64,000 bases of DNA from a virus. A model generated the notes under the pieces. The model was not told the DNA's origin and did no database searches. It worked only from the letters and a program-made list of their open reading frames with translations. Below, piece after piece: positions 22,461 to 36,215 of this stretch. A program made the translations under genes and the position numbers. The DNA lies in the IMG/VR virus record IMGVR_UViG_3300042691_036206, positions 2,655-66,654 of that record. One strand, given 5' to 3'. Every line of letters starts with the position of its first letter. Positions within the stretch are counted from its first letter, which is position 1.

Positions 22461-22969
22461 AAATCAGGTACTACGACATTCCAGGCAAGTGGACGAAGAG
22501 GATTCAGCCCCACCTTGGCGACGAACACCTCAATCAGATTATCATCCGCGACTTCAACAAGTACACGTATGGGAGATGGCGTCGGAAGTTCATGCCGGGC
22601 ATGTTCCCCGCCGACTTCGAGAGTTGCCTTTGGGACATTTCTCACCGAGGTCGCAAGCCGCGATACTGGCGATACGTAAAGCATGCCGCCTGCCACTGGC
22701 TCGTGAATTTCAACCTCCGATTAGCCCAACTCGCGGAGCCGTCGCATCCGTGGCGCATCTTGACGAGTCAGGATCACTCCACTGTTTGGGACGGCGACGC
22801 GATCCTCTTTGACATGAATTTTCTCGCGCTCGGCGTCGCTCCTGACGAAGCATTCACTCTTGCCAGCGAGAAAGAACTTCCGATCGGGAAGCAGCTGCGG
22901 ACCTATTTCGCTGAACACTTTTCGGTTGATGTGAAGCGACTCGCGGAGGAACGTGCTGGCGGAGGGTAA
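22457..22969 (+). CDS. hypothetical protein
   Basis: 170-aa ORF; ACHW...HSTVWD may be a Cys-His-Asp-type catalytic set (inference). Confidence 0.6.
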   Translation: MKIRYYDIPGKWTKRIQPHLGDEHLNQIIIRDFNKYTYGRWRRKFMPGMFPADFESCLWDISHRGRKPRYWRYVKHAACHWLVNFNLRLAQLAEPSHPWRILTSQDHSTVWDGDAILFDMNFLALGVAPDEAFTLASEKELPIGKQLRTYFAEHFSVDVKRLAEERAGGG

Positions 22970-23513
22970 GAACGAGGCGAGGCTGGTCATTGTCGAAGGC
23001 AAGCAGGTAGTGGAAGTAATCCTCACCCAGGGGAAAGTGACCATCATTGATCTGGACGATTGGGAATTGATCCGTGCTCGAACGTGGGGCACTGCCTACA
23101 GTAGACAATCTCGAACGCCCTACGCTCTCACGAGCGTACCCCTCCGTGATGGGCGTTGGACGAAGATCTATCTTCACCGCTTTCTACTCAAGCCCAAACC
23201 GGGCGTTCGGGTCGATCACAAGAATCACGACGGGCTAGACAACCGCCGCTCCAATCTTCGATTCGCCACGGCAGCCGAAAGTGCCCGGAATACCCGGTCC
23301 CGAGAGGGAAGCTCCTCAAAATATAAAGGAGTGACGTGGGACAAGAACCGGAAGAAGTGGAACGCATGTATCAAGCTCGGCCCGACGACCTACATGCTCG
23401 GTCGCTTCGACTCCGAAACGAAGGCAGCGCTCGCTTATAACAAGAGGGCTCGCGAAGAATACGGCGAATTCGCTTACCTGAATTCAATCGAAGAAGCCGT
23501 TGATGCCCCCTGA
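22953..23513 (+). CDS. HNH-AP2 homing endonuclease
   Basis: LHRFLL...VDHKNHDGLDNRRSNLR; SSKYKGV.W...LGRFDSE..AALAYN..A...YGEFAYLN. Confidence 0.9.
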   Translation: MLAEGKNEARLVIVEGKQVVEVILTQGKVTIIDLDDWELIRARTWGTAYSRQSRTPYALTSVPLRDGRWTKIYLHRFLLKPKPGVRVDHKNHDGLDNRRSNLRFATAAESARNTRSREGSSSKYKGVTWDKNRKKWNACIKLGPTTYMLGRFDSETKAALAYNKRAREEYGEFAYLNSIEEAVDAP

Positions 23514-23559
23514 AGATCTCGCAAACCCGTATAAAAGACAGAAGGAAACGCGGGACCGC

Positions 23560-23987
23560 TCGGGTACTCTGCCGTGTACTCTCAGCGTGGAAAGTGTGCC
23601 GAATCGTGCCATCTATAGAAATTGTGCTCGTTCCGCAAAATCATGAGGTCAAAGATTTTACGGCAAATGGCCATTGAAGAACGGTACTGGCACGGTAACT
23701 GCCATCGCCGTGAACCTGACGCCTCGAACGCAAAGTATTGGTTCCGCCGAGTCGGTGACCATCCCGTCTTTTCTTCCCTTCGAGAACAAGCTCCTCCACT
23801 TGGCTACGATTACACGAATCCCTTTGATTTTGTGGACTTTTGCGAGCGTCATCGAGGTACTGGCTCGCCCGAAGAAATGATCGCTCGCAAGGTTCAGCAG
23901 CTTGAATGGCAGCTCCTTTTCGACCACTGCTACCGCCTCGCCGTGACGGGATAATTCGCTCTTCGGGTACTTTGATCGGGTACTTTG
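23560..23987. other. putative attP with arm-type repeats on both sides
   Basis: TCGGGTACTCTG 23560, CGTGTACTCT 23573, TCGGGTACTTTG 23963 and 23976; immediately upstream of the integrase. Confidence 0.65.
23685..23954 (+). pseudogene. 3' fragment of a conserved bacterial hypothetical gene (attB replacement fragment)
   Basis: YWHGNCHRREPDASNAKYWFRRVGDHPVF...EWQLLFDHC recalled as the C-terminal half of a bacterial protein; no credible N-terminus or RBS. Confidence 0.6.
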
Positions 23988-24038
23988 CCCGCTATAATGC
24001 ACTCGTGCCCTTTTCCCGTCGCACGAGGAGCGTCCGCC

Positions 24039-25139
24039 ATGCGAGCCAACAAAGTCTGGAAGCGAAAAGACACCGGCTGGTTCTACACGAAGATCGACCG
24101 CAAGCGAATTCGCCTCTCGAAGAATCGGGGCGAAGCCGAGCAGATGATGCACGAGCTTCTTTCCGAGCGGAAAAAGAAGGCGGAGGACGAGTCTCTCGGG
24201 ACGAAGGCGTTTCCGTCTTTCCGAAAAATCGCCGATCTCTTTCTTGAAAACTCCGTCACGGAGAACAAGCCGACCACGTACCGTGCTCACAGGATGTTCC
24301 TGCAATCCGCCTGCGACTCCTTTGGGAAGAAGAGAATTAACGACCTCAAGGTTCATCACGTCACCGCCTGGCTCAAGGAGGAGCGAAAGGCTCAACCTCG
24401 CGAGCCGAAACTCGACGAGAAGGGCAACGTCAAGAAGCAGGCGACCGCTCGAAAAGGGAAAAAGGGCCCGTGGGGAGCGAGCACGGAATGCTCCGCGAAA
24501 GGCACCATCTTGGCGGCGTTGAATTGGGCCGTCGATCAGGGCTACATCTCGTCGCACCCGCTGAAGAAACTGAAGCGTGGCACCCACAAGAGACGCGAAC
24601 GTGTCTTCACCGCCGATGAGTTGAAGAAAATCCAGGACTTCGTGAAACCCGACTTCCGGGATTTCCTTCGGGCCTTGGAACTGACCGGCGCCAGGCCATT
24701 CTCGGAACTCGCCACCCTGACCGCAGAGATGATCCACTGGGACGCCGAAATCATTCCATTCGATGAACATAAGAACGAGGCGAAGGGGAAATCACGCACG
24801 ATCTACATTGTGCCGGAGCTGATGGAAATTCTGAAGCGGCTGGCAGCGAAGCATCCAAAGGGGCTTCTCTTTCGCAACTCTCGAAATAAGATCTGGACCT
24901 CTCACGACGCCACTCGCCGACTGCACTACGCGACCCGGAAACTCGGGATCCCGAAGGGGACGATCTATGCGGTGAGGCACAAATTTATATCTGATGGCCT
25001 AGAAAAAGGGCTGAACGCGAATGTCATTGCGGAGCTATGCGGCAACAGCAGCATCACGATCGCAAGGCACTATGATCACGTATCGAAGCGAAAAGCCGCC
25101 ATGCTGGAGGCGGCCAGGAAGGTCGTCGCGGTGAGCTAG
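24039..25139 (+). CDS. int: tyrosine integrase
   Basis: TGARPFSE (R), HKN (K), YAVRH, RHYDH (Y); N-terminal arm-binding-like domain; GAGGAG RBS. Confidence 0.92.
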   Translation: MRANKVWKRKDTGWFYTKIDRKRIRLSKNRGEAEQMMHELLSERKKKAEDESLGTKAFPSFRKIADLFLENSVTENKPTTYRAHRMFLQSACDSFGKKRINDLKVHHVTAWLKEERKAQPREPKLDEKGNVKKQATARKGKKGPWGASTECSAKGTILAALNWAVDQGYISSHPLKKLKRGTHKRRERVFTADELKKIQDFVKPDFRDFLRALELTGARPFSELATLTAEMIHWDAEIIPFDEHKNEAKGKSRTIYIVPELMEILKRLAAKHPKGLLFRNSRNKIWTSHDATRRLHYATRKLGIPKGTIYAVRHKFISDGLEKGLNANVIAELCGNSSITIARHYDHVSKRKAAMLEAARKVVAVS

Positions 25140-25363
25140 AACGGAATCGGCTCGTCCCATCCATAGACGTTCATTCGAGGCTTGTCGGGCCCCACGTCGG
25201 TCACGTAGATGTCGACCTGGCATCGAGGCATGACCACCTCAGCGCCTTCGTTCCCGAAGTGAAGCTCCACGCCTTGAGCGGTGATGAAAACCTCGGTTCG
25301 ACCGTTAGCCTTCCGCATGTCGATCGTGACCCTCGGCGTCTTTCTGAAAAACCATCCCCACAT
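25136..25363 (-). CDS. hypothetical protein
   Basis: AGGAGG RBS before GTG; last gene of the minus-strand operon. Confidence 0.55.
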   Translation of the reverse strand: MWGWFFRKTPRVTIDMRKANGRTEVFITAQGVELHFGNEGAEVVMPRCQVDIYVTDVGPDKPRMNVYGWDEPIPF

Positions 25364-25375
25364 TTCGCACCTCCT

Positions 25376-25591
25376 TTACCGGATATGTTTCAACGGTCCG
25401 TCATCCACACCACAAGGATCCTCCACGCGGCACGACGCCAGCATCACCGTGATATCCTCATCCTTGAGGAGAATCTTCCCCTTACCATGCACGCCGACGC
25501 GGTAGTACGGCAGTTTTCCTATTCGACACAGCTCGTAGAGCAGCGACTTTGAGAGCGGGTACTTCTTTGCGGCGTCGGCAATGGTCATCAT
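25376..25591 (-). CDS. excisionase-like HTH protein
   Basis: MTIADAAKKYPLSKSLLYELCRIGKLPYYRVG...GKILL; adjacent to int. Confidence 0.8.
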   Translation of the reverse strand: MMTIADAAKKYPLSKSLLYELCRIGKLPYYRVGVHGKGKILLKDEDITVMLASCRVEDPCGVDDGPLKHIR

Positions 25592-25626
25592 CTGGCACCT
25601 CTCCTTCTTCTCTGGGCCGACATCCC

Positions 25627-26379
25627 TCACGCCACCACCAACTCCAGCCGCCGTGGCCTCGGGAACTCCTGCACCACCGCCCCGTCAAGCATCGGCTCCT
25701 CGCAAGGAACGCCCTTATCGTCTAGGTACGCCTGCTTGAAGAAGTGCGTCTTCCCAGCTTCCTTGCACTGGTTGTCGATGTCACGAACCCAGTCCATGTC
25801 CATGATGCGTCGGGTGCCTTTCGCCGCACGCTCGCAGCCCGTGATGACCCAATCGATCCATGAAAGGTGTTCGCGGAAGTCCATGCGTTCAATGAGTGGT
25901 TCGGCCGAGACGAACTTCACCGCTGCCGGGACCGCCTTCAGGAGCGGCAAGCGATACAGCGACTTCGAGCAACCACAGGTGACGCCGAGCCATACGTTCG
26001 GATAGCCTTCGACCCAATCTGCCGGTAGGCGGTCGGGGATGAGATGTGGACGCTTCGTGAGGATGAGCCAATCGAGGTTCTGGCAGTCCTTGATGATCTT
26101 CCAGACGTCGGGCCGCCAGGCATCGGCGCCTTGATGGAAGAAGTCGGACATGCTGCACGTGAAGACGCGATGACGCTCGCCGAGTTTCGCGGCCTCACGA
26201 TCCCAGGCATAAGGAGCACGCCAGGTTTTTGTCTTCATCGGGCCATTGAAGGGCTCGTACCCTCCACGGCGCATGATGCTGTCGATGTAACAATGGTCGC
26301 ATTCTGGGGTGACTTTGTTACAGCCCCACCAAGCGTTGAAAGAATGATGCGTCCAACCGATCTTCGAATTCTTTGGCAT
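25627..26379 (-). CDS. DUF5131 (Gp37/Gp68-like, radical-SAM-like) protein
   Basis: SKIGWT..SFNAWWGCNKVTPECDHCY, VFTCSMSDFFH, LILTKRP, FVSAEPL, DWVITG.E, FFKQ. Confidence 0.9.
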   Translation of the reverse strand: MPKNSKIGWTHHSFNAWWGCNKVTPECDHCYIDSIMRRGGYEPFNGPMKTKTWRAPYAWDREAAKLGERHRVFTCSMSDFFHQGADAWRPDVWKIIKDCQNLDWLILTKRPHLIPDRLPADWVEGYPNVWLGVTCGCSKSLYRLPLLKAVPAAVKFVSAEPLIERMDFREHLSWIDWVITGCERAAKGTRRIMDMDWVRDIDNQCKEAGKTHFFKQAYLDDKGVPCEEPMLDGAVVQEFPRPRRLELVVA

Positions 26380-26452
26380 GGTAGTTCTCCTGTATGGTGG
26401 CTTAGATTCTGGTACTTCTAGTCCCGTCTGTAAACGCCTCAACTGCCTCCAT

Positions 26453-26650
26453 TCAATTCTCCGACGGTCGACACAGCCGCTGATTTTCCAACGCTCGCAG
26501 TTCCTTCCACTTCTCGATCGCGTCGACGATCACGTGGTAGAAGAGATCGACCGCATCGTCGAATTCCCCTCCACGCTTCCTCAAGGCACGGGCCAAGGCA
26601 TGAGCGGTGCCCCAGGCGATGTCGTGGGTCAATCGCGTGTCATTGTTCAT
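26453..26650 (-). CDS. hypothetical protein
   Basis: GGAGG RBS; 65 aa. Confidence 0.55.
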   Translation of the reverse strand: MNNDTRLTHDIAWGTAHALARALRKRGGEFDDAVDLFYHVIVDAIEKWKELRALENQRLCRPSEN

Positions 26651-26666
26651 GGCGCCCCTCCCTTTC

Positions 26667-26963
26667 TTACCCACGGTGTTCGTCGAGGTACTTCTCAAGC
26701 CAAGCAGTTGACCTTTCACCGAATCGATCCATGCCCCGTTCAAAAGCCTTGCCCAGCACCTTGATCGTGTGGGCCAATATCGCCGCCGCGATAAACACCG
26801 CCAGGGCGAAGAATGGAGAACTTCCATCGCTGGATTTTTCAGTCGCAATTCGAATGCTTCCGGTGAACACCACCATCAGCACGATCCAGCAGTCGATGAC
26901 CACCAGGGTCGTAAACCCCTTGTCGTAAGCGTTTTTGAGAAACTGTTTGATGCTCTGCCACAT
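26667..26963 (-). CDS. small membrane protein (2 TM)
   Basis: Two hydrophobic segments; AAGGAG RBS. Confidence 0.6.
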   Translation of the reverse strand: MWQSIKQFLKNAYDKGFTTLVVIDCWIVLMVVFTGSIRIATEKSSDGSSPFFALAVFIAAAILAHTIKVLGKAFERGMDRFGERSTAWLEKYLDEHRG

Positions 26964-26999
26964 GACAAACTCCTTGGAAAAGGGATGCAAAAAAACCAC

Positions 27000-28388
27000 C
27001 TATTCGCGACTCGCTCTCACCACTTCAGCGGGGAAATTCAAACGAGTCGTCCATTCACGATCTTCGATGTCTTCGAGTACTTCCCACTCTGGCGGGACGG
27101 GCTTGCCCTCCGACGCCGGGGGGACACCGTCGTAAACGTGGAGGAAGGGGATCGAGAACTTGAAAGGGCCATCTGGGAAGTCGGCATAGCCCTCAATGAA
27201 GTCCTTGCCCTTCTCAGGGCAAGCGCGACTGAGCCGCATCAATTCATCTGGCGACACGTTGGCCCAGTTTTTCACCGTGGTGTTTGCCTTGTCTGTCCTG
27301 GGTGCCGTCCAGGCCATGCCGGTGTAGACAGGATTCACGACCTCCAGCACATCGCAGCTTCCGAGGTACGCCGAGGCCCACTTCGCCATGTCCGGAGATC
27401 CGCACTTCATGAACGCCTTGAAGGCGAGAAGCGCTGCGATTTCTTCGGCAACGTTTTTTCCGTACTGCTCAGCGAGACCGAGGATTTCGTGCAACGTGAC
27501 CACAGGGCACATTCCACTTTTCCTCCCACGACGGCAAATTTTCAAAAGACCTTCCAGCGGCACCATCGATGCGATTTCGTCGCAGCCGAACCAATGTCGT
27601 GTCTGCGTGACGCGGGAGAGCCCGTAATCGGCGATGGTGTCGAGAGCAAAAGAGAACAGGCCCGATTGCACGCTGGCGTAGCGGTCGACCCAGCGGAAGA
27701 CGTTCCAACCCTTGCCCGTGAGAAGGGGCTCCAGGAAGCTCGCCTTTTTTGGGGCTTTCTCTGACAGGGCGGCGTATACGGACAACTGCATCAGTTTGGT
27801 CGCGACCGTTGCCTGTACGTCCCTGCTGGTATCGCCAGCGTGGCCCAGAGGGGCGTAAACATCGCCCACGCCTGGAACCAACTTCCCCGCCTCCGAAATT
27901 AAACGATGGTCCTTTGCCAACCGCACAACATCCGCCAGGCGCCACTTCTTCGGAGCGAAGTGATGGAGGATATGAAGTGCCGCGATGAGGATGATCTGGG
28001 CCCAAGCATCGAAGAAGTTGTTCTTTCCGCGATTCTCCTGCGGGGCCATCTTTTGGGCGAAGCGGACTCGCTCGGTCTGCGTCGTAATGTCCGCCGCCAG
28101 GTCCATTGCCGTCCCACCCTCACAGTGAACTTGGAACTCATTTACCTCGACTCCGTTAGCCTTCAGCAGCGGCGTGAGACTTCCGTCGGCATCCACGGCA
28201 GAGCCGGAGTCGCCATTTCTCGCAGCCGCTCTGAAGAGCATTGCGGCCAGCGAGCTTTTGCCGCAGCCGGGAGCGCCGGTGAGGAGGAAGCCCAGCGACT
28301 GCAAGGCGCTGATGACCCACCGGCCGCAGAACGGAACGGATAGCGGTGGAACTTCCAGAGGCCTTTCGCGAAAAATATTTCTAAACAT
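27000..28388 (-). CDS. type IV coupling protein (TraD/TrwB/VirD4-like ATPase)
   Basis: LTGAPGCGKS Walker A, NNFFDAWAQ, CDEIAS Walker B, RGRKSG, EQYG..VAEEI, AKWASAYLG, VSPDELMRL; next to the relaxase. Confidence 0.8.
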   Translation of the reverse strand: MFRNIFRERPLEVPPLSVPFCGRWVISALQSLGFLLTGAPGCGKSSLAAMLFRAAARNGDSGSAVDADGSLTPLLKANGVEVNEFQVHCEGGTAMDLAADITTQTERVRFAQKMAPQENRGKNNFFDAWAQIILIAALHILHHFAPKKWRLADVVRLAKDHRLISEAGKLVPGVGDVYAPLGHAGDTSRDVQATVATKLMQLSVYAALSEKAPKKASFLEPLLTGKGWNVFRWVDRYASVQSGLFSFALDTIADYGLSRVTQTRHWFGCDEIASMVPLEGLLKICRRGRKSGMCPVVTLHEILGLAEQYGKNVAEEIAALLAFKAFMKCGSPDMAKWASAYLGSCDVLEVVNPVYTGMAWTAPRTDKANTTVKNWANVSPDELMRLSRACPEKGKDFIEGYADFPDGPFKFSIPFLHVYDGVPPASEGKPVPPEWEVLEDIEDREWTTRLNFPAEVVRASRE

Positions 28389-28698
28389 TGGAGTCTCCTT
28401 TCTTCAGCCCATCGCCGCGAATGACGATCTGTCCGACGCCGTGAGGCTTCGGTCGGCTCCACTCCGTGATGGCCTGTAAGATCGAAATCAAAACGAATTC
28501 AAAAAACACCACGCTTGCGATGACGATCGCCCCCATCACAAACGGATGCCTTTGAATGAACGTGGGGTCGATGGCCCTACTGATTGCCAGCGGCGCCACG
28601 ATCGCCACAGCGAGAGTGACCCACACTGACAACTCCAGAACGACTCTGAAGAAGAACCACTTCAGCGGCCTGAGAAAAATCACCCGGAGAATCTCCAT
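28381..28698 (-). CDS. membrane protein (2 TM), possible separate anchor for the coupling protein
   Basis: Two TM segments; overlaps the start of the T4CP, which has no TM of its own. Confidence 0.6.
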   Translation of the reverse strand: MEILRVIFLRPLKWFFFRVVLELSVWVTLAVAIVAPLAISRAIDPTFIQRHPFVMGAIVIASVVFFEFVLISILQAITEWSRPKPHGVGQIVIRGDGLKKGDSNV

Positions 28699-28718
28699 GA
28701 CGCACCTTCCCTTTCTGG

Positions 28719-30158
28719 TTAATGGCGATTTCTGCGTTCTTGCCTGCGACTCTGAATCAAGGGCTCATCCTGTCCCTTCACGTAAACAGCGACGTTATGC
28801 TTCTCCGCTGCGATGCGGAGCTTCTGAAGTTCTTTCGAGGTCATCGCGGTCGCGGCGGCTTTCGAGAGGACGACACGATCGCCGCTTTTGAGCTTGATAT
28901 GGGGCTCTCTCGCTCGCTGATACGCATACTCGGCGCGTAGCAGGGCTTCTCTGAGGGTGTGAAACGGATTGCCTTGGTACAGCGATCGGATCGCGGCTCT
29001 GTGAGCTTCTGGGCGCGATCGCTTCTTGATGTCATCCAGAAAAGCGGGAACGCTCTTCACCCGGTAATCACGTGAAGCTCCGAGGTTGACGACCTTGACC
29101 GCCGCACCGATGACTCGCAACGGAAGCACGACAAACTCATCAAGGAGCCTTTGCAACCGACCGGGTGTCTTGAATTCTTTTTCTGGTTGGCTTTTTGCCG
29201 CGACCGTTGCCGCTGTCTTTCTAAACGAAGGTTTCTGCGCACCCTTCGCGGCATCCTCTTTTGCGGAAGGCTCGTCTTTGATCCAGCCCTGGCTCCGCCC
29301 ATGTTGCAACAGAGCTTGTCCCGCGAGCGGCTTCCACGTCTCGACCAGTTCCGCACGTGTATACGCAACGGGCGGGCACGTGCGAGTGTTCAATGCGGCG
29401 TAGGCTTTCGCCTGCGGTGTCGGCTCGATGCCCTTGCTCTCCAGGTAGTTCTTGATTTGTTCGCTGCGTTTACCGACCAACGCCATCAGCTCAGGGGGCA
29501 CGCCTTGCACCACAGCCACGCCGCGATTGAAGCCGATGTTCCACTTAAATTCCTGGGCGAGTTCTTTACCGAGGGCCGCTTGGAACGCCATCTGATACAG
29601 CTTGTCGATGCGGTAGTACTGGCGGAGGTCGCCAAGCTTCAACGTCTTGCCGGTTGCGGTAACGCCGTACCGTGAGAGCCGACGGTGAATGTGCCAATGA
29701 ATCCCGCCACCGTTGTCGGTCGCGTGGATGACGCGGCGGACCACTGGAATCGCAGGAACGATTTTCTTTCCCTGGGCGCCAGAGCGTACGTGCCAACCCT
29801 TCGCCATCACTACCTTGAAGGCCACGTCATCCGCTCGCTTCAAGCAGTCCGCCATCTTCTGGAACGCCGCGGGGCCTTCCATTACCAGGACCACGAGGAA
29901 CATTGCGTTTACTGACTTGTCCGTGCCGCTGACCATCTCGAAGGGGCGCGTGTCTTTGCGGTTCTTCTGAACGCGGATGGCCGGACTTCCGTCTCCCCGC
30001 TTCTCCTGAGCGTGAAGGCGGTTTTGCTCTGGATCGTTGGCGTCGGTGAAGCCAATCAGAGCGGCCGGGCCCATGAAGTCGGCCCCACCACCATGCTCGA
30101 TTGCGTCCTGGTTGTACTTCTCAGAGAGGGAGTACTTCTTCGTCGTGCGAGTTATCAC
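28719..30158 (-). CDS. MOBF (TrwC-family) relaxase, divergent, without helicase domain
   Basis: FEMVSGTDKSV (D.TFSAPKSV equivalent), IHATD....IHWHIH 3H motif, FQAALGKEL, GVPPELM...KRSEQI, AALNTR. Confidence 0.8.
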   Translation of the reverse strand: MITRTTKKYSLSEKYNQDAIEHGGGADFMGPAALIGFTDANDPEQNRLHAQEKRGDGSPAIRVQKNRKDTRPFEMVSGTDKSVNAMFLVVLVMEGPAAFQKMADCLKRADDVAFKVVMAKGWHVRSGAQGKKIVPAIPVVRRVIHATDNGGGIHWHIHRRLSRYGVTATGKTLKLGDLRQYYRIDKLYQMAFQAALGKELAQEFKWNIGFNRGVAVVQGVPPELMALVGKRSEQIKNYLESKGIEPTPQAKAYAALNTRTCPPVAYTRAELVETWKPLAGQALLQHGRSQGWIKDEPSAKEDAAKGAQKPSFRKTAATVAAKSQPEKEFKTPGRLQRLLDEFVVLPLRVIGAAVKVVNLGASRDYRVKSVPAFLDDIKKRSRPEAHRAAIRSLYQGNPFHTLREALLRAEYAYQRAREPHIKLKSGDRVVLSKAAATAMTSKELQKLRIAAEKHNVAVYVKGQDEPLIQSRRQERRNRH

Positions 30159-30565
30159 GGTTGCACCGCCTTCTCCTCCGCCATGAACTTCGCAATGTCG
30201 CCTGAGAGATAGACCTCATTCACGAGCGCCACCGCCGTAGCGGTGTCGAGAGATTCCCCGCGACGTTGTTGTGTCGAGAGCAGGAGCACGGCCAGCTCGG
30301 CCAACAGGGCTTTCATCTCTGCGGGCTGAATCCCCACGTGAGGCGGCGGCAGTGGCGCGTTTCCGTCCGGCAAGCAGCGGTGTTCGAGGGCCCACGAAAT
30401 GAGATCGTGGCCGAGCGTGCTCTCGGTGGTCTCAAGTTCCTTCGCCAACGCTCGAAATGCTGCCTTCATCTTGAGCGGCACTCGCACGCTGATAGTCGTT
30501 GTCGGCTCACTGTTGCCGATGATGGTTTCACGCGGGTCAGGCTTGATGGTGTCATCACTGTCCAT
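30155..30565 (-). CDS. RHH relaxosome accessory protein (TrwA/MobC-like)
   Basis: TTISVRVPLKMKAAFRALAKELETTESTLGHDLI; coupled to the relaxase by ATGA-type overlap. Confidence 0.65.
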   Translation of the reverse strand: MDSDDTIKPDPRETIIGNSEPTTTISVRVPLKMKAAFRALAKELETTESTLGHDLISWALEHRCLPDGNAPLPPPHVGIQPAEMKALLAELAVLLLSTQQRRGESLDTATAVALVNEVYLSGDIAKFMAEEKAVQP

Positions 30566-30776
30566 GGTCGCTACTCCGAAAGCGGTTGAGGAAGCGGGTG
30601 AAGATTGTCGGCGAGGACTGCGGGGCGGGCGACGAGGACCAAAGAAAGTCTTCGAGGCGCTTGTGAGCTTCGATCTCTTCCGGCGTCCGGCGAGCGTCGA
30701 AGAACGCCTGGATGGGATCGTCGGGCTCGTAGGGAGCCTGGTAGCCCTCGAAAAAGTCCCTGATGGGATCTGACAT
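30555..30776 (-). CDS. hypothetical protein
   Basis: 73 aa; internal DPI..FF repeat; RBS present. Confidence 0.45.
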   Translation of the reverse strand: MSDPIRDFFEGYQAPYEPDDPIQAFFDARRTPEEIEAHKRLEDFLWSSSPAPQSSPTIFTRFLNRFRSSDHGQ

Positions 30777-30973
30777 GGGTGTTTGCCTTTCAGTTTGCGT
30801 AAACCTGTGGCAGCTTTCGACCGGCCGAATTCTTACCACCGAATGCAAGAAAGCCAAGTTTTGGAGTGAGCAGTTTTGAGCGCAACTCTAGGCGCATCAT
30901 CGAGATAATTTTCTTGAGATTTATTTCTGTAACTCTAAGAGGGCCAATGGCTTAAAGGGCATTCGGTTGGCCG

Positions 30974-31071
30974 GGCGAGGACATCAAGATTAGCGTTTCG
31001 GCCTGTGGAATGTGTTGCCCCGGCGAGGACATTAAGAACAGCGTTCGCCCGCCTCGGCGAGGACATGAAGA
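30974..31071. repeat. three GGCGAGGACATNAAGA direct repeats; candidate oriT/ori region
   Basis: Copies at 30974, 31022, 31056; AT-rich tract at about 30900-30940; intergenic, upstream of the relaxase operon. Confidence 0.7.
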
Positions 31072-31176
31072 TCGATGGGTGGAGAGGTGGTCATCTGTCA
31101 ATGAACCTTTTTGAAAACCTCTCCTGAACTGTCGTGTGCCAATCCTGGCATCCCATCCGTGGGCATCCATTCTGGA

Positions 31177-31542
31177 CTAGAAGCGATCGCCGACGTCGTT
31201 GCCGTCGTCACTTCCACTTTCGCCACCGCCGCCGACGTTGGTTCCGTTCTGCTGAGCGAGCCAGATCCACGCCATGCGTGAACACTCAGCGACAACGAGC
31301 AAATCGTCCCGACCGAAAGTTGTCGCCGACTTCCACTGTCCTTGGCCGTCCTTGTAGTTCCGCGTCATCGTGACGCTGTACCACACGCCTTCCTTGCTCT
31401 CGTTCTCCCAGATTGTCGCCTTGATGCGACCGCATCGGATCTCGTGAGCGGGAGGTCGACGACCATTCCCTTGATCGCGGTTCTGCTGCTGCTGCGGGGC
31501 GTCGTTGCGACCGACCGTCTGCGTTCTCTTTTGAGGAGCCAT
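31177..31542 (-). CDS. putative ssDNA-binding protein of mobile elements
   Basis: IKATIWEN...YSVT.TRNYKD..GQWKSATTFGRDDLL; acidic tail ending in F. Confidence 0.65.
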   Translation of the reverse strand: MAPQKRTQTVGRNDAPQQQQNRDQGNGRRPPAHEIRCGRIKATIWENESKEGVWYSVTMTRNYKDGQGQWKSATTFGRDDLLVVAECSRMAWIWLAQQNGTNVGGGGESGSDDGNDVGDRF

Positions 31543-31681
31543 GACGGCACCTCTCCTTTCTTGAAAGTTCGTGACATGGAGATGTTCCAGACACAAGGAA
31601 AAGAAAAACAGCGGCCTCGCTCCGAGCGAAATGCCGCTGAGAAATCCACGGCCCGGCATCCGTTCCGGGGGTTGTGCGTTG

Positions 31682-32425
31682 CTACACCGCGAGGGAGCGA
31701 TCCGGCAGCATGAGACCATTCAGGCGAATGGTTTGCGAGACGAACACTTGCGGCGCCGTGATGGCACGTTCCTTCAGAACTTCCGTGAAGGCATTGAAAA
31801 GGCCCCAGCCTGTGCGGGCCCGGAACTCTTCATGTGGCGGATTCTCCCACTGCTCGCAGACCTTGGGAATCTGAAGCGTCGAGATGATTCCGCGGTGAAA
31901 GGCCTGAAGGATGATGTGACTTGCCGCCTCCGGCGTGAGTTCCATCTCCATCATTCGCTTGATGCGGTGTTCCTCGGCATCCTTGAACGACGCAAGCGAC
32001 GTGACTGCGGTACCGATCGCCGTGCCGAAGGCCCGCATGCCATTGATCGTGTGTTTTCTGCGGACGAGCAACTCGGCTCGGAATGCCAAATTGTCACAGC
32101 AAAAAACTCTTGATCCAGCCGCGAAGCCGAGCGGAAAGGACTTGTCGGTACTGTTGCGGATCCCGACCGAAAGACTGACGCCCTGAGCGAGCGGAGTTGT
32201 CAGGTCGAGAACGCCGAAGAAGCGTGCTCCATCACGAGCGAGCGCGAGCTTTTGACTCGCGATCTGGTATCCCGCTCCTGAGAGCGTTTCACGAACAGTC
32301 GCTAGCACTGTCGTGTGGGCCGTAGGATGCCACCGCCCTTCGGGCGGTGGAGTCCTGCAAGCCTTCAGCTCGTCGAGCGTGACGAGCCGCCCGCCCGCGT
32401 GAAGCACGAGCGCTCCTTGAGACAT
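31682..32425 (-). CDS. DUF932 domain protein
   Basis: GIRNSTDKSFPLGFAAGSRVFCCDNLAF...RKHT...TGWGLFNAFTEVLK. Confidence 0.85.
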   Translation of the reverse strand: MSQGALVLHAGGRLVTLDELKACRTPPPEGRWHPTAHTTVLATVRETLSGAGYQIASQKLALARDGARFFGVLDLTTPLAQGVSLSVGIRNSTDKSFPLGFAAGSRVFCCDNLAFRAELLVRRKHTINGMRAFGTAIGTAVTSLASFKDAEEHRIKRMMEMELTPEAASHIILQAFHRGIISTLQIPKVCEQWENPPHEEFRARTGWGLFNAFTEVLKERAITAPQVFVSQTIRLNGLMLPDRSLAV

Positions 32426-32810
32426 TGCAATCCCTCTTGGGTGAGGGGCTGGCGCACTTCTGAAAACCTTCAGTGCTGATGACCAACCTCTCTCCCGGTC
32501 GGGGACAGAGGTCGCGTGATGTGTCTTCTACCCAACAAGCTCAACGTTGACACAGGTTGCAATGACAGGCAAGGGGAGGCATAAGCCGGATGTGGTGAGC
32601 GCGGGACGGTCACCGACAAAAGTGGAATGGAGCGGCTGCTTGCAAGAAGAACCTTTGGAACTCCCAGCCGCGAGAGCTAAGTACCATAAGAAAAACTGCC
32701 GTGAAAGAAGGGCATTCCTCCCTCCACGGCACTCAGGGCTCACCGCCACCGGACGCCGGTATTCCTTGGATTAGTCATTCTAATCCTCCGCTTCCCGGCG
32801 CCCTGAGAAA

Positions 32811-33473
32811 CTACCTCCGCCCAGCCTCATACCGCAAGAGGTCCGCAATCTCTTTCGGCGTCTCGATGAAGACCGGCTCCGGCGTAAACTTCTTCCGCAC
32901 ACATCGTTTCCAATCGACCGGGGCTTTCTTCAGCAGGCGGCGGCATTCATTTAGGTGTCGGATGAGCGAGAAGAGGCCGTCCCTAACGCCGGCGAACGGC
33001 AAAAATGGAAACTCCCGCACCGTGGTTTCGCAGGCGCTAAGAGTTTCCTTTGCTAACTCGGTAAACTCCCTTTTCAACCGTCGCTGGGCCTCGGGATGGA
33101 GCCTCACGGAGACCTTCTCCGTCTGGCGATTGACGCTGATGGAATAGCCTTCGAGATGGAGCGGGGCTTCTCGAATATCCTTCCAAGCTTCGCGGTTGAA
33201 GAAGGACGAGCGGCCTTTGGTTGCGATGATGATGCAGAGTTGCCCGCAGCGGAGGTACTTCACCTTCGCGAACCCAGCCTTTGAACGGCGATACTGTTTT
33301 TCTTTGCTGAGATGCGCGTCGTACAGCATCAGCAACCTAGCGTCGATTATGAGCGGATCCTTATTATCGGGAATCCATGACGTGCTGTAAAACACATACT
33401 TTTTCGTCAGTAAATTGCACGCCAGATAGCGAACCATCGCATCGGGTGATTTAATAATATACTGGACGGTCAT
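32811..33473 (-). CDS. hypothetical protein of mobile-element type
   Basis: YVFY...IP..KDP..ID.RL...Y...SK....RR.KAG.A.V.YLR...ATKG pattern recalled from Planctomycete mobile elements; start uncertain. Confidence 0.6.
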   Translation of the reverse strand: MTVQYIIKSPDAMVRYLACNLLTKKYVFYSTSWIPDNKDPLIIDARLLMLYDAHLSKEKQYRRSKAGFAKVKYLRCGQLCIIIATKGRSSFFNREAWKDIREAPLHLEGYSISVNRQTEKVSVRLHPEAQRRLKREFTELAKETLSACETTVREFPFLPFAGVRDGLFSLIRHLNECRRLLKKAPVDWKRCVRKKFTPEPVFIETPKEIADLLRYEAGRR

Positions 33474-33489
33474 AGAGGCATGATGACAT

Positions 33490-33514
33490 AAAAAAGGCGG
33501 GGTTGCCCCCGCCT
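33490..33514 (-). terminator. intrinsic terminator on the minus strand
   Basis: AGGCGGGG-GCAA-CCCCGCCT followed by a T-run. Confidence 0.7.
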
Positions 33515-33697
33515 CCATACCTTAGATTGTCCTGCCTTGCCATGGCTCACCGATCCGCATCCAACCTTAGCCCGCCAAGCCGAGCTAATCCGTACCTAAC
33601 CTTGAGTCACCTTACCGCGATCGGATAAATTCAGGCACCGGGGAGGTTGATTTTGGGCAGAGTGACTCAAAAGTTACGCGATCGCACAGATTCTCTG

Positions 33698-34503
33698 TTG
33701 GGGGGATTCTGTCTCTCGACAAGGCTCCCCCCAGGCCCACCGACATAACCTTCTCCGCACGTGTTGGTGCTTTCCAACCCTTCCAGGTGACACCAACCCT
33801 ACGGCCATCCTCCTCGGTGAGCACTGTCGTTCTTCCAGAGCGGAAACGACGGAATTGACTGCCCTGCCATCCGTCGAGCCTATAAACCTCCTTTCTAAAA
33901 CCTTGGGCCCCGCCTTTAGCCGGACAACCTCCTACAGAACTTTGCGCGTCCTACCCGTGCTCGCTCTCCCCTCTGCCAGAACCTTCTGTCCTTGAAGGGC
34001 AGAGGCTCCCGAATTGTCGACGGCTGTCATGTGGTGGTCACGTCGTCGAGCGGCGTATTCGACCGCACGGCGGGCGGGTGCTCCAGAAGTTCCCCGCTAG
34101 AACACTCACCCCTCGGTAGCCCGAGGGCTTTCACCCTTGGAACGCACAAGACAGGGTTACCGCCCCGCCCGCGTTCTGAACTATTTGGCACCGTCTCCGT
34201 CCACACGTACTCGATTGCAGTTGCCTGCGTGACCCTTTGCGCTACTTGCCCGTCATCCCTCGCGGGTGACTGGTTCCAGGGTCGAGCGAGGTTGAGGCGA
34301 CCACGTGGGTCATCCGCCCCCTCGGCGGCGCAATGTATATTTGGCTATACAAGAACCACTGGTCTTGCATACTCCAGTAGACATTACGCCGCTTCAGCCG
34401 CCATCCCATCGTCGCACGCGAATCGGTATTGATTCTTCCCCACTGAACAAGGGCCTCTCGACCCATTCAGCGAGCCCGATTTGGTGGTGAAGGGGCGTCG
34501 GTG
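33698..34503 (-). ncRNA. large (~810 nt) structured non-coding RNA candidate
   Basis: No credible ORF; 5'/3' closing helix; more than ten hairpins, several with GNRA loops; G-U pairs favour the minus strand; upstream TTCCCA-16-TATCCT promoter. Confidence 0.7.
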
Positions 34504-34508
34504 TGCCC

Positions 34509-34536
34509 AGGATAGGCCGGGGCCGAGATATGGGAA
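34509..34536 (-). promoter_or_regulatory. putative promoter of the large ncRNA
   Basis: TTCCCA-16 nt-TATCCT; the predicted start coincides with the first base pairs of the closing helix. Confidence 0.45.
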
Positions 34537-34550
34537 ACAGACGAAACCGG

Positions 34551-35270
34551 TCAGGACTTTGCCTTGCTGACACGCTCGTAAAGGATTCCCGCAAGGCGAC
34601 TCATTGCGTCATCAGCGTACTTATCGGCCTCCTCGCCGCCGCCGTTGTATCGCCGGAACACCTCGCGGATACGGACCGTTGGATCCTTAATCCCGTCGAT
34701 CTCCTTGGACTTTTGCTGCACGATAAGAGCCGAGCACCGAGCGGCCGTCCACACGTCGTACAGACGGCTCCAGTGGAGGTTGCAATAGTCTTTTGCGGAA
34801 TAGCCCATGACGTGAAAGACGCCGTGACTCGATGCGATCATTCGCAATTCATTGGTGGAGGTCGTGCGGTATTTCTTATTGTTCCTCAATTCTTCGAACT
34901 TCTTCGCTTCAAATGCGTAAAGGCTATTCTGATCCCCGCCGCGGCTTTCCTTCTCCGCTAAGACCATCAGGATTAGAGGGTCTACATCGAACTCCTTCGC
35001 GGTCTTAACAATGATGTCCCCAAGCGTGGCATCATCCACTTCACGGTACTCCGTGATCGTCTTCACGACCGTGACTTTCTCCAGCAGCGCGTCCCTCGCT
35101 CGCATGGCATGCACCGATGCAACTTCAAAGGCAAGATCGACAAGACGAGAAACGCAGAGGCAGATACACAAGAAGAAAGTAAGTTTTAGGCCGAAGATGA
35201 TCAGCTTGAACTTTCGTGCGTGGCGTTGTGATTTGTTTTTTTCTGTGGCTTCCATGACGTGTTTTTCCAT
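34551..35270 (-). CDS. lytic transglycosylase (SLT-like) with N-terminal TM segment
   Basis: AKEFDVDPLILMVLAEKESRGG, SSHGVFHVMG, RRYNGG. Confidence 0.75.
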   Translation of the reverse strand: MEKHVMEATEKNKSQRHARKFKLIIFGLKLTFFLCICLCVSRLVDLAFEVASVHAMRARDALLEKVTVVKTITEYREVDDATLGDIIVKTAKEFDVDPLILMVLAEKESRGGDQNSLYAFEAKKFEELRNNKKYRTTSTNELRMIASSHGVFHVMGYSAKDYCNLHWSRLYDVWTAARCSALIVQQKSKEIDGIKDPTVRIREVFRRYNGGGEEADKYADDAMSRLAGILYERVSKAKS

Positions 35271-35301
35271 ACGGCGGGCCCGAAGGCCCGCCTTTTAGGC
35301 G

Positions 35302-35535
35302 TTAGTATTTTCGTCGGCTCGATGCAGGCACCATTCGCTCGTCCCCATCTTCCGGGCCGTAGTCATTAGCAAGGCGCGTCTGAACCCGGTCGTCTCTACC
35401 TGTCCTGCCATGCCATCCCGTCTCGACCTTGAAACTGCACCCACTCATCGCAAGCCCCACCAGGGCGAGCACCGCCCCGAGAAAACCATAACTAATCGTG
35501 GTCTTCTTCGCTGAATCGTTCCTGTATTCCTTCAT
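35302..35535 (-). CDS. small lipoprotein
   Basis: Hydrophobic stretch followed by the lipobox-like AMSGC. Confidence 0.6.
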   Translation of the reverse strand: MKEYRNDSAKKTTISYGFLGAVLALVGLAMSGCSFKVETGWHGRTGRDDRVQTRLANDYGPEDGDERMVPASSRRKY

Positions 35536-35545
35536 AACCTTCCTT

Positions 35546-35773
35546 TTATTGCTTAACCTTAGTTGACATTTCTACGCGCCGATGCACGGTGAGAATCGTA
35601 TCCGCGACCTTGAACGCTCTGAGGCCGGCCCGGTGCCAGCCCTCGAAATCGTAGTCCGGAAAGTCCTTCATCGTGAACCCGTCGATAGAGAGAAGCTCCT
35701 CGACTCGCTTTTTCCATTCCGGGTAGGTGATTCGGAAAAGCCGAACCTTTGCTACCTCTGCACTGTTTCCCAT
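35546..35773 (-). CDS. hypothetical protein
   Basis: GGAGG RBS; downstream of a TTGACAC promoter. Confidence 0.6.
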   Translation of the reverse strand: MGNSAEVAKVRLFRITYPEWKKRVEELLSIDGFTMKDFPDYDFEGWHRAGLRAFKVADTILTVHRRVEMSTKVKQ

Positions 35774-35830
35774 GTTGCCTCCCTGCTGTTGTCAATGATG
35801 CGCGTCAATACGCATCAGTCAGTCAGAGGT

Positions 35831-35860
35831 ATGATTCGTCAGTATGCTATTTTGTGTCAA
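35831..35860 (-). promoter_or_regulatory. promoter related to the repeated early motif
   Basis: TTGACA-CAAAATAGCATACTGACG-AATCAT, 18-nt spacer. Confidence 0.5.
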
Positions 35861-35924
35861 CGATTATTGACGAGATCGGCAAAGAAAGTTGTAAGCGTGC
35901 GGAATGACGCGAGAAAAAACGGCG

Positions 35925-36215
35925 TTATTTCGCGTCTGGGAGCTTGGCCTTGACGTACTTACGGGCCAGGCCGACCGTCAGGAAGCCATAACCGAGAGAT
36001 TCCAACGCGCCTTTCACGCTATCGAGCCCCTGCGAGATCGCATCACGAGCGGCGATGATGGTGACCTGATACTCAGGAAAGAGCGGCGCGATGAGATTCA
36101 GGAAGTCAGCGAAGTAGGCGATGGCGAGAAGAACGCCACCAATCAAACTTTTGTAGCCATCTAAAAACGCTCCCAGCCGCGTCATCGAAAGTAGGTAGTG
36201 AAGTGCTTTTGCCAT
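35925..36215 (-). CDS. holin-like membrane protein
   Basis: LDGYKSLIGG TM1, second TM segment, basic C-terminus; end of the lysis cassette. Confidence 0.6.
   Translation of the reverse strand: MAKALHYLLSMTRLGAFLDGYKSLIGGVLLAIAYFADFLNLIAPLFPEYQVTIIAARDAISQGLDSVKGALESLGYGFLTVGLARKYVKAKLPDAK

Follow-up and report, generated by a model that had tools for sequence, protein, structure and literature searches.

Does the group of plasmid-type transfer genes in the middle of this phage genome belong to the phage, and might it allow the phage to move by conjugation in addition to its virion? The window analysed is a stretch of 64,000 nt (record positions 2,655-66,654) that makes up most of the 66,654-bp IMG/VR virus record IMGVR_UViG_3300042691_036206, which is classified as linear in topology and as 86% complete by CheckV. 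Family matches revealed head, tail and replication genes of the siphovirus type surrounding a cassette at 25.1-33.5 kb. PHROG profiles identified TerS and TerL, portal, protease, major capsid, adaptor and neck proteins as well as major tail, tape measure, distal tail, hub and fibre proteins, with E-values across the virion genes ranging from 1.9e-143 (TerL) to 4.6e-7 (TMP), and the replication genes comprise a primase, two helicases, AAA_24, DUF669 and a weak VRR-NUC match. Judged by its terminase-to-fibre gene set, the record represents a temperate tailed phage of the siphovirus type. The first-pass annotation had considered head, tail, lysis and replication genes intact, which was confirmed by family matches for all but the lysis genes: for a lysis cassette (holin, endolysin, spanin), zero families were obtained at threshold. 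An ORF at 34551-35270 with an N-terminal TM segment gave a sub-threshold SLT match (E 0.12), a lipobox ORF at 35302-35535 lies near the candidate lysis region, and TM ORFs are present at 35925-36215 and 39108-39383. As the lysis genes lack family support, full autonomy of the phage is not proven.

The block truly belongs to this phage genome and is continuous with it. At the junctions where a chimera check had been proposed (23.4-23.6 and 33.5-33.7 kb), exact Logan contigs span both sites and come from samples other than those flagged as the source: the left edge is bridged by contigs covering 22963-24264 (run X4) and 23446-23909 (run X6), and the right edge by contigs covering 31989-33984 (run X3) and 32872-33727 (run X4), while a further contig from X3 (23983-25667) bridges the junction between int and the cassette. 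These bridges are short assembled contigs rather than raw or long reads, and runs X3 to X6 carry identical year and habitat labels and may stem from one campaign. The 2025 freshwater run X7 contained exact matches to parts of the cassette as well as to parts of the phage flanks. The depth in X3 was similar across flanks and block (about 6.5, 5.5 and 6.0, one depth figure per contig). The relaxase and the capsid protein each recur in several archives at 99.6-100% identity, the longest contigs having 66,810 and 51,138 bases, and contigs of 66,810, 66,654 and 51,138 bases bear the same proteins. For a linear, 86% complete metagenome contig, one might suspect that the assembly is chimeric or that a prophage with misplaced borders was joined to a neighbouring IME, and the consulted sections of Ares-Arroyo et al. 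(2023; PMC10123127) voice just such a suspicion of co-integration or assembly artefacts for the only six phage-plasmids with conjugation genes reported there, of about 175 kb each. However, the exact bridges from three other runs, the even depth and the recurrence on long contigs argue against an artefact, as does the layout of the record, in which an intact attP lies in the middle and the ends adjoin the terminase genes, contrary to what a prophage integrated beside an island would show. We therefore regard an artefact as highly improbable.

An attP-like region (23514-23987) lies upstream of a gene for a tyrosine integrase (23985-25139, plus strand; Pfam Phage_integrase 2e-12, phrog_1 1.4e-42). 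It contains the arm-type 12-mer TCGGGTACTYTG in three exact copies on the plus strand (23560-23571, 23963-23974 and 23976-23987), which occurs nowhere else in the window, and by its sequence the region looks like an intact attP, as had been proposed for the site beside int. A minus-strand ORF at 23658-24770 was rejected as int, since it overlaps the plus-strand integrase and has 0 family matches. The integrase is the sole recombinase found in the record (1 PF00589 match, 0 PF00239 matches), in accordance with the idea that the phage uses the adjacent integrase as its own. The presence of int and attP favours integration over a phage-plasmid state, and no plasmid Rep or Par family was found among about 70 proteins in a general family scan. 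Also the claim that no attL/attR repeats bound the block held: the longest word common to both edges amounted to 9 nt and was equalled in 185 of 200 shuffles, and an exact 12-mer search detected no arm repeat at the right edge of the block. The tetranucleotide distance of the block (0.141) falls within the range of 0.100-0.189 of the 59 segments tested, and a compositional seam between block and phage is absent.

All genes of the cassette are encoded on the minus strand, with stops overlapping starts, between hairpins at 33516-33493 and 25115-25094. Read in the direction of transcription, the order is DUF932, a small DNA-binding-like gene, repeats, an RHH-like gene, relaxase, anchor and T4CP, and DUF5131 and HTH_17 genes complete the cassette. 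Plasmids have the order leading region, oriT and Dtr operon, which the cassette order mirrors. A strong terminator-like hairpin (33493-33516, minus strand) marks the upstream edge of the block. The ORF at 32811-33518, with an unassigned product, probably starts further downstream because its first codons overlie this hairpin, and a 15-pair terminator-like hairpin (32697-32731) separates it from the DUF932 gene (31682-32425; 1.9e-5, 25 bits against a cut-off of 23). The latter is thus present as the first-pass annotation had said, and lies in this ORF rather than in the last one of the block. The next gene (31177-31545) encodes a 122-aa protein of four strands and one helix; its tail is acidic and terminates in DRF. 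It is predicted to be DNA-binding-like, obtained neither a family nor a significant fold match, and is not supported as an SSB. According to the part of PMC11541004 consulted, SSB and anti-defence genes of leading regions share a common orientation.

The intergenic spacer at 30858-31176 contains three 17-nt direct repeats TCTTnATGTCCTCGCCG (minus strand) at 30959-31072 and an inverted repeat at 31081-31124, and is a candidate for oriT. A 72-aa ORF in the spacer was rejected as a gene; it reads as a low-complexity translation of the repeats. Against the oriT reading, neither a nic site nor oriT homology was identified, and the 17-nt repeats could alternatively be operator or iteron sites. Downstream follow a 100-aa ORF (30555-30857) without family match and the gene of an RHH-like protein (30155-30565; RHH_1 E 0.18, sub-threshold), a candidate relaxosome accessory, whose stop overlaps the relaxase start. 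At the other end of the cassette, a 110-aa predicted membrane protein (26667-26999; KD19 maximum 2.23; no family at threshold) is encoded directly 3' of the T4CP gene. An alternative ORF, 26453-26848, overlaps that of 26667-26999. Then come a DUF5131 (phage Gp37/Gp68-type) protein (25627-26442; 4.9e-55; phrog_2045; PDC-M41B/M30B), a predicted HTH_17 or excisionase-like DNA-binding protein (25376-25630; HTH_17 30.7 bits against a cut-off of 27; NCBIfam 'excise' 21.8 bits, below the cut-off of 28.8), a 75-aa ORF without family match (25136-25363) and the terminator-like hairpin at 25094-25115, which ends the cassette convergently with the end of int. Of the gene list given in the first-pass annotation, int, DUF5131, T4CP, relaxase, repeats, DUF932 and the HTH_17 excisionase-like gene were upheld with the family models, whereas the RHH and SSB-like assignments were not.

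The relaxase gene (28719-30158, minus strand) encodes a 479-aa protein of the TrwC fold (MOBF-like) with TrwC as its sole Pfam match (residues 55-277; 1.2e-11; 45.2 bits against a cut-off of 25); with NCBIfam MobF it scored 47.7 bits, below the cut-off of 100. In an alignment of 24 family sequences, Tyr9 and His156 were invariant and His145 and His158 were at least 90% conserved, the three histidines forming the triad H-x10-H-x-H with spacings of 11 and 2. The family profile matched TrwC 1omh with 2.9e-28, and the triad aligned with the HETSRERDPQLHTH stretch of TrwC. Similarly, an AF2 model (pLDDT 84.3) matched TrwC 1qx0_A in Foldseek (E 2.1e-14, TMt 0.77) with an rmsd of 3.6 over 297 columns and 18-19% identity to TrwC. 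The relaxase thus retains the catalytic tyrosine and the His triad. TrwC and TraI have two catalytic tyrosines in their N-terminal motif, and conjugative MOBF relaxases typically carry a C-terminal helicase domain. Here the second tyrosine (Tyr15) is not conserved across the 24 sequences, and no helicase domain was detected by Pfam or, for residues 334-479, among the fold matches listed; in the AF2 model these C-terminal residues form a conserved small alpha/beta domain.

The T4CP (27000-28388, minus strand) was recognised by TrwB_AAD_bind (8.4e-27) and TraG-D_C (3.9e-12), and its profile matched TrwB 1e9r with 1.8e-15; with NCBIfam TraD it scored 66 bits, below the cut-off of 521. Its Walker A (GAPGCGKS), DE Walker B and RRGRKSG motifs are invariant in 5 of 5 relatives. 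No TM segment of its own was found in the T4CP, the highest 19-residue hydropathy being 1.35, and in all five aligned relatives Walker A is preceded by no more than about 40 residues. The gene upstream (28381-28698), whose stop overlaps the T4CP start, encodes a 105-aa protein with two to three hydrophobic helices (KD19 maximum 2.65; no family), which is a candidate for a separately encoded membrane anchor of the T4CP. As claimed before, the record lacks T4SS genes of the four families searched, VirB4, AAA_10, TrbI/VirB10 and VirB11 (PF03135, PF12846, PF03743 and PF00437, each in 0 of 1 record). The proposed content, a mobilisation unit of relaxase and T4CP without a mating channel inside a full virion genome, was thereby supported.

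We interpret the block as a Dtr cassette of the plasmid/IME type carried by a phage, with helper-dependent conjugative transfer as a second route of spread, and give this reading a probability of about 50%. That the phage genome could be conjugated is plausible: gene content, conserved active sites, contiguity with the phage and the lack of both an own channel and IME-type borders are shown, and an oriT in 30858-31176, recourse to a helper and transfer itself are what we infer. Counting against this reading are the missing helicase domain and second conserved tyrosine of the relaxase, the scores of relaxase and T4CP below the MobF and TraD cut-offs, and the linear, 86% complete state of the record. 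The RHH-like protein would bind the 17-nt repeats in the spacer, and the relaxase would nick a nearby site via its N-terminal tyrosine and remain bound to the resulting 5' end. With the 105-aa anchor tethering it to the membrane, the coupling ATPase would then pass the relaxase-DNA complex to a type IV secretion channel provided by a co-resident conjugative element, and the circular 66.6-kb phage genome would enter the recipient as single-stranded DNA, led by the DUF932 and small DNA-binding-like genes. After re-circularisation, it might integrate at attP/attB via the phage's only integrase or begin a lytic cycle. If so, the phage would possess a receptor-independent route beside its virion and could spread both as a particle and by cell contact.

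The same genes might instead be a passenger or remnant, namely an IME-like element captured by recombination or by an old integration with decayed borders, of which only the integrase is useful to the phage, whereas relaxase and T4CP serve the passenger or are gradually being lost, and conjugation does not normally carry the entire phage. The clustering of int, excisionase-like gene, T4CP, relaxase and oriT-like repeats as in an IME and the insulation of the cassette by terminator-like hairpins agree with this possibility. So does the distribution of the genes, as expected for genes foreign to phages: relaxase and T4CP had zero matches in 50,697 GenBank phage records, and pattern scans of IMG/VR yielded no relaxase relative and one weak partial T4CP-like match only, without a full-length ORF. 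However, the block has no attL/attR-type bounding repeat, one att region holds all three arm repeats, catalytic and ATPase motifs are intact with reading frames open and coupled, and the composition does not differ from that of the phage; besides, an oriT in the circular phage genome would mobilise the entire molecule, whatever its origin. On balance a passenger seems rather unlikely. The earlier proposal of an IME absorbed by the phage gained no support, given that no compositional seam exists and the searches turned up no phage relatives, carrying the block or lacking it, for comparison; the capsid relatives in IMG/VR are at most 45% identical and all fragments, with relaxase or T4CP in 0 of 5.

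Doubtful, too, is a repurposing of the HUH relaxase and the FtsK/TrwB-like ATPase for a phage process other than conjugation: they might initiate rolling-circle replication, resolve or pump DNA, or interfere with conjugative elements already in the cell. HUH relaxases resemble rolling-circle initiators in mechanism, and the relaxase without helicase and without conserved second tyrosine, the T4CP without its own membrane segment and a weak match of the latter to the defence-candidate model mad8 (2.3e-8) would fit such a use. Yet for replication the phage already has its primase, two helicases, AAA_24, DUF669 and weak VRR-NUC match, the anchor gene is translationally coupled to that of the T4CP, the T4CP carries TraG-D_C, the domain with which, according to Pfam, TraD and TraG recognise TraM, and the gene order fits a Dtr operon with leading-type genes.

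Among known systems, the R388 proteins TrwA-TrwB-TrwC (MOBF prototype; PDB 1omh/1qx0, 1e9r) have the relaxase fold, the His triad and a TrwB-type ATPase in common with the block. As in R388, an RHH-like gene and repeats lie upstream. In contrast to R388, the block has a relaxase of 18-19% identity to TrwC with one conserved tyrosine, a different C-terminal domain and no helicase domain, its relaxase gene precedes that of the T4CP, and the candidate membrane segment of the coupling protein has a gene of its own. IMEs and mobilisable plasmids with relaxase and own T4CP (iMOB/pMOB) likewise combine int, excisionase-like gene, relaxase, T4CP and a repeat spacer upstream of the relaxase operon with the lack of a T4SS; CloDF13 is named as a T4CP-bearing example of mobilisable elements in the part of PMC11389934 consulted. 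The block shares with IMEs its own integrase and att site, the relaxase and the absence of mating-pair genes, but rather than forming a discrete element bounded by attL and attR, it is embedded in a 66.6-kb genome that also encodes terminase, portal, capsid and tail proteins. As in the phage-plasmids with conjugation genes described in the consulted parts of PMC10123127 and Pfeifer et al. (2021; PMC7969092), virion and conjugation-type genes occur in one replicon, although the element studied here has 66.6 kb and is integrative (int/attP). For Phi1207.3, a 'conjugative prophage' of Streptococcus pyogenes, the transfer mechanism is left open and the words 'relaxase' and 'coupling' have 0 occurrences in the text of the paper (PMC4260502), whereas here relaxase and T4CP are explicit and transfer is a prediction. 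Phage-ICE tandems (ICE::Phage, Phage::ICE) are, in the sections seen of Huang et al. (Sci Adv 2026; PMC13651849), accretions of a prophage and a complete ICE 'rather than a hybrid element'. In these tandems prophage DNA is proposed or shown to conjugate, and the phage integrase yields a transferable circle. Here, by contrast, the transfer genes lie inside a non-integrated phage genome without T4SS (the four families in 0 of 1 record) and without a second element border. The best reading of the block is a phage-borne mobilisation module, from which the phage-ICE tandems, as far as the consulted sections describe them, differ by their full ICE.

The mobilisation block consists of genes on a single strand (minus), running from 33518 down to 25136. 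It begins with an ORF without family assignment (32811-33518), followed by a DUF932 gene (31682-32425; 25 bits versus a cut-off of 23), a gene for a 122-residue protein (31177-31545), a spacer of 319 nt that contains three direct repeats (30858-31176), a 100-residue ORF, a 136-residue RHH-like ORF (30155-30565), the relaxase gene (28719-30158; TrwC, 1.2e-11), a 105-residue hydrophobic ORF (28381-28698), the gene for the coupling protein T4CP (27000-28388; TrwB_AAD_bind, 8.4e-27; TraG-D_C, 3.9e-12), a 110-residue membrane ORF, a DUF5131 gene (25627-26442; 4.9e-55), a gene for an HTH_17 excisionase-like protein (30.7 bits versus a cut-off of 27) and, as the last of the series, a 75-residue ORF. 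Stop and start codons overlap between the RHH-like ORF and the relaxase gene and between the 105-residue ORF and the T4CP gene. Since terminator-like hairpins of the minus strand stand at 33516-33493 and 25115-25094, the cassette appears to be insulated at both ends; another such hairpin is found at 32731-32697. In a search of the record for four T4SS families (VirB4, AAA_10, TrbI/VirB10 and VirB11), none of which matched, no mating channel of the phage's own emerged.

The first-pass annotation had placed int, xis, DUF5131, RHH and DUF932 genes and a T4CP in this region. T4CP and DUF5131 are borne out by their family matches, and the xis and DUF932 genes are retained at scores close to their cut-offs. 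The RHH-like ORF is present, but RHH_1 is reached at E 0.18 only, which is sub-threshold, and a PDB phmmer search with the protein gave no useful match. The tyrosine integrase (Phage_integrase, 2e-12; phrog_1, 1.4e-42) was located on the plus strand at 23985-25139, and the minus-strand ORF that overlaps it has no family match. It is the sole recombinase of the record (one match to PF00589, none to PF00239). The DUF5131 protein also matches the PADLOC candidate defence models PDC-M41B (4.9e-43) and PDC-M30B (1.3e-41), and its score for the NCBIfam 'radical SAM mobile pair protein A' is far under the cut-off.

A word-based search with the relaxase returned the protein itself only, and an exhaustive HMMER search of 1.84 billion representatives gave 104 proteins at E <= 1e-3 (103 of them non-self), 32 at E <= 1e-10 and 6 at E <= 1e-30, with 34% identity for the closest non-self relative. 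When the 24 best-scoring proteins are aligned, Tyr9 and His156 do not vary, and conservation is at least 90% for His145 and His158; the histidines are spaced by 11 and 2 as in the triad of TrwC. TrwC (1omh) is matched by the family profile at 2.9e-28, the triads falling in register, and so is TraI of F, R1, pKM101 and pCU1. Comparison of the AF2 model (mean pLDDT 84.3) with TrwC 1qx0_A gave an E-value of 2.1e-14 and a TMt of 0.77, and every structural match listed at E <= 0.001 is an entry for TrwC or TraI. In contrast to the TrwC prototype, the relaxase is without a helicase domain, its family does not conserve the second tyrosine, and a confidently modelled C-terminal domain (residues 334-479), common to most of the family, had no match among the structures listed. 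The NCBIfam MobF score amounted to 47.7, below the cut-off of 100. The MOBF designation of the first-pass annotation agrees with the fold, Tyr9 and the histidine triad but not with the lack of a helicase and the MobF score. Because triad and fold agree with the prototype whereas these other features differ, the protein is predicted from alignment and model to work like a MOBF relaxase, yet within an outlying helicase-less clade.

For T4CP, four relatives besides the protein itself were found (27-58% identity). All five aligned sequences share invariant Walker A, DE Walker B and RRGRKSG motifs and lack an N-terminal membrane segment; their profile finds TrwB at 1.8e-15. The start of the T4CP gene is overlapped by the 105-residue ORF, which encodes two or three hydrophobic helices. 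In Gram-positive plasmids (pIP501), coupling proteins that lack a transmembrane domain are recruited by a partner membrane protein, and we infer that the 105-residue protein, a candidate anchor, pairs with T4CP.

Within the spacer at 30858-31176, TCTTnATGTCCTCGCCG occurs three times on the minus strand with spacings of 34 and 48 nt, together with a 13-nt inverted repeat, and a 72-residue ORF called there is a low-complexity translation of the repeats. The spacer would be the oriT candidate, although no nic-site homology that can be claimed was found in it. The DUF932 gene and the gene for the 122-residue protein sit on the opposite side of the spacer from the relaxosome genes. In conjugative plasmids, leading-type genes, repeats and relaxosome genes follow one another in this order on one strand. 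A single orientation relative to oriT is described in the accessible text of PMC11541004 for SSB and anti-defence genes of leading regions.

The 122-residue protein had been called SSB-like. Its seven non-self relatives display the core GRIKATIWEN...FGRDDLLVVAE, and three of the eight aligned sequences close with an acidic stretch whose final residue is aromatic (DRF, IPY). Its model comprises four strands and a helix, with a core pLDDT above 90. A PDB phmmer search gave no match, Foldseek gave a weak best E-value of 0.15 (Pur-alpha, PC4 and SsbA rows), and the best VIA Z scores of 5.8 and 5.2 (YbaB/EbfC-type entries) fall short of what the tool itself treats as meaningful. As these fold matches are weak, the SSB-like label stays a guess.

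The surrounding record, a single contig of 66,654 bases of which the window covers 2655-66654, is classed as linear in IMG/VR and has a CheckV completeness of 86%; it lacks a terminal repeat, tRNA genes (ARAGORN) and Rfam families. PHROG matches reveal a complete siphovirus-type structural gene set, which occupies the minus strand between 63.9 kb and about 43 kb and encodes both terminase subunits (small, 2.7e-50; large, 1.9e-143), a portal (5.8e-115), a head protease (1.1e-47), a major capsid protein (6.5e-45), head-tail adaptor, neck and two major-tail-type proteins, a tape measure (4.6e-7), a distal tail protein (4.3e-36), a tail protein (2e-25) and a J-like fibre (1e-73). Replication and DNA-modification genes occupy the left third of the phage and encode a primase (1.7e-54), a helicase (8.3e-93), an AAA_24 protein (6e-40), DUF669, a weakly matching VRR-NUC protein, a methyltransferase fused to a helicase, and another methyltransferase; a weak Cro/CI-type HTH match lies just beyond the window edge. 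The two orphan DNA methyltransferase domains (16708-18966 and 20294-21286, one of them fused to a helicase) are likely to be anti-restriction functions that would be of use by either entry route. A DUF3560 protein is encoded in the early region (15059-16018; 9.6e-27). As the first-pass annotation links this domain to the polyvalent proteins that conjugative elements encode, the phage may have here a second gene of plasmid flavour.

Head, tail, replication and lysis genes had all been described as apparently intact, which is confirmed for the first three; for lysis, no gene reached any family threshold. The protein encoded at 34551-35270 combines an N-terminal TM segment with a sub-threshold SLT match (E 0.12); Pfam SLT gave no match over the whole record at E <= 1, and PDB phmmer with this protein gave no useful match. 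At motif level, a lipobox ORF (35302-35535) and TM ORFs (35925-36215 and 39108-39383) were recognized. By motifs alone, 34551-36215 together with 39108-39383 makes up a candidate lysis cassette of a holin-like TM ORF, the lipobox ORF, a TM and ES...YNGG transglycosylase-like protein and a TM and coiled-coil ORF. Between the upstream cassette terminator and the TM/SLT-like gene, about 1 kb (33519-34550) is without a convincing ORF and contains an imperfect hairpin of about 68 nt near 34327-34394 that belongs to no Rfam family. An Frpo-like structure was considered for the minus strand of 33519-34560 and is unsupported, since its ssDNA folding is no better than that of shuffles (z -1.14 and -1.49).

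Regarding the origin of the block, the 64 kb contain three exact copies of the 12-mer TCGGGTACTYTG, always on the plus strand (23560, 23963 and 23976), which bracket about 390 bp immediately upstream of int; inexact copies are about as frequent as expected by chance (10 versus 7.75). By its sequence, this layout appears to be that of arm-type sites around an intact attP, as had been proposed. No arm repeat was found at the right edge. The reported lack of attL/attR direct repeats is upheld, as no direct word longer than 9 nt is common to 23400-24050 and 33400-34650, and 9 nt were reached in 185 of 200 shuffles. The tetranucleotide distance to the rest of the genome was 0.141 for a block-centred 8.4-kb segment (range 0.100-0.189 for 59 segments). 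Because attP-like arms occur at one site, the edges share nothing and composition is within range, a recent insertion of an IME through its own int is unsupported; the phage may have captured the block at an older date. Two HNH endonuclease genes (22953-23513 and 36426-37247) lie just outside both edges of the att-int-cassette region. One carries an AP2 domain, and loose contig ends at 23324/23360, within the AP2 part, were seen in several runs, as expected of a repeated homing-type gene.

Relatives carrying the block were sought as had been suggested, and none emerged. No match was obtained with megablast of 23000-34500 against phages and plasmids, tblastn of relaxase and T4CP against 50,697 phage records, IMG/VR pattern scans with relaxase, T4CP and the alignment A2, or pattern scans of genome and metagenome contigs. 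One IMG/VR match to the alignment A3 was rejected as a T4CP relative, being weak (34% identity over residues 66-142) and without a full-length ORF. Neither relaxase nor T4CP was present in five IMG/VR records with distant capsid relatives, a result that is uninformative because these fragments are only 10-66% complete. For the nearest clusters, the Atlas names Pseudomonadota, Verrucomicrobiota and Planctomycetota, which serve as host leads only.

In view of the concern about a chimeric assembly at the block junctions, public sequencing runs were inspected. Words of the block occurred in 13 runs, in six of them half or more, and two runs were flagged as a possible source; contigs were compared for four unflagged runs (X3, X4, X6 and X7). 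Exact contigs span the left edge (X4, 22963-24264; X6, 23446-23909; no differences), the convergent junction of int and cassette (X3, 23983-25667) and the right edge (X3, 31989-33984; X4, 32872-33727), and X3 contigs continue exactly into phage genes (33968-34895 and 34884-36868). This bridging evidence consists of short assembled contigs, and X3-X6 may be one campaign. Depth in X3, at one figure per contig, was about 6.5 in the left flank, 5.5 in the block and 6.0 in the right flank. Run X7, from freshwater of another year, yielded exact pieces of flanks and block at low depth, and its bins without cover were not counted as a finding. X8-X13 carry small shares of block words, from which no habitat is claimed. 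Exact copies of the relaxase, of T4CP, of the DUF932 protein and of the capsid and terminase proteins are encoded on contigs of up to 66,810, 66,654, 51,138 and 45,597 bases from JGI, NCBI, ENA and Logan, and the cluster members are 99.6-100% identical. One X4 contig, left out of the contiguity evidence, links 32385 (inside the DUF932 gene) to 24208 (inside int) with 14 other letters in between; it could stem from a relative whose genes are arranged differently, from a graph artefact, or from a circle or duplication of 8.2 kb.

An artefact or chimeric assembly is very improbable, since exact contigs from other runs cross both edges and the int junction and the X3 depth is similar throughout. 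The mobilisation cassette is real and intact, and the temperate phage that carries it is apparently complete. We estimate a probability of roughly one half that the cassette is a working DNA-transfer (Dtr) module through which the circular phage genome would be mobilised via a helper T4SS; the estimate is not higher because the lineage is an orphan one, there are only leads to the host, and the transfer is a prediction. A captured passenger or remnant, with a relaxase of no service to the phage, is rather unlikely, and repurposing for a non-conjugative phage process is about equally so; other explanations share the remainder. In the mobilisation reading, the circular genome would be packaged into virions, a single strand led by the relaxase would be launched from the same circle through the mating channels of other elements, and the single integrase would serve both routes. 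That a tailed temperate phage routinely uses these two vehicles, virion and borrowed channels, is a more tentative proposal.

Host range of phages is commonly attributed to receptor recognition, conjugation is assigned to plasmids, ICEs and IMEs, and relaxase matches in viromes are usually read as contamination or misassembly. If our reading is true, a phage that forms virions and also carries a relaxase, a coupling protein and a transfer origin of its own blurs the division between phages and conjugation, the phage enters cells without its receptor, prophages gain a route to hosts beyond their infection range, and virome relaxase matches need a different reading. It would then be conceivable that 'mobilisable phages' form a class of their own, set apart from both phage-ICE tandems and phage-plasmids.

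The full-text literature search yielded no description of a tailed phage that encodes both a relaxase and a T4CP of its own, though supplementary lists may hold some (PMC7969092 Table S4, 122 phages with plasmid features; PMC10123127 Fig. S14; PMC13651849 data S2-S3). The accessible text of Huang et al. (2026; PMC13651849) reports 612 phage-ICE tandems, nested ICE::Phage forms included, and calls them functional interplay 'rather than a hybrid element'; complete ICEs are involved there, whereas the phage described here is without its own channel. In the available sections of Ares-Arroyo et al. (2023; PMC10123127), conjugation-related elements appear in six phage-plasmids only, with co-integrates or artefacts suspected, and Phi1207.3 is named a conjugative prophage in those of PMC4260502, which do not mention a relaxase. 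As far as these texts extend, the published cases in the literature searched are accretions of a prophage and a full ICE (PMC13651849), suspected artefacts (PMC10123127) and transfer without a known relaxase (PMC4260502). What is new here is the combination of two known kinds, a virion-forming phage and a mobilisation cassette.
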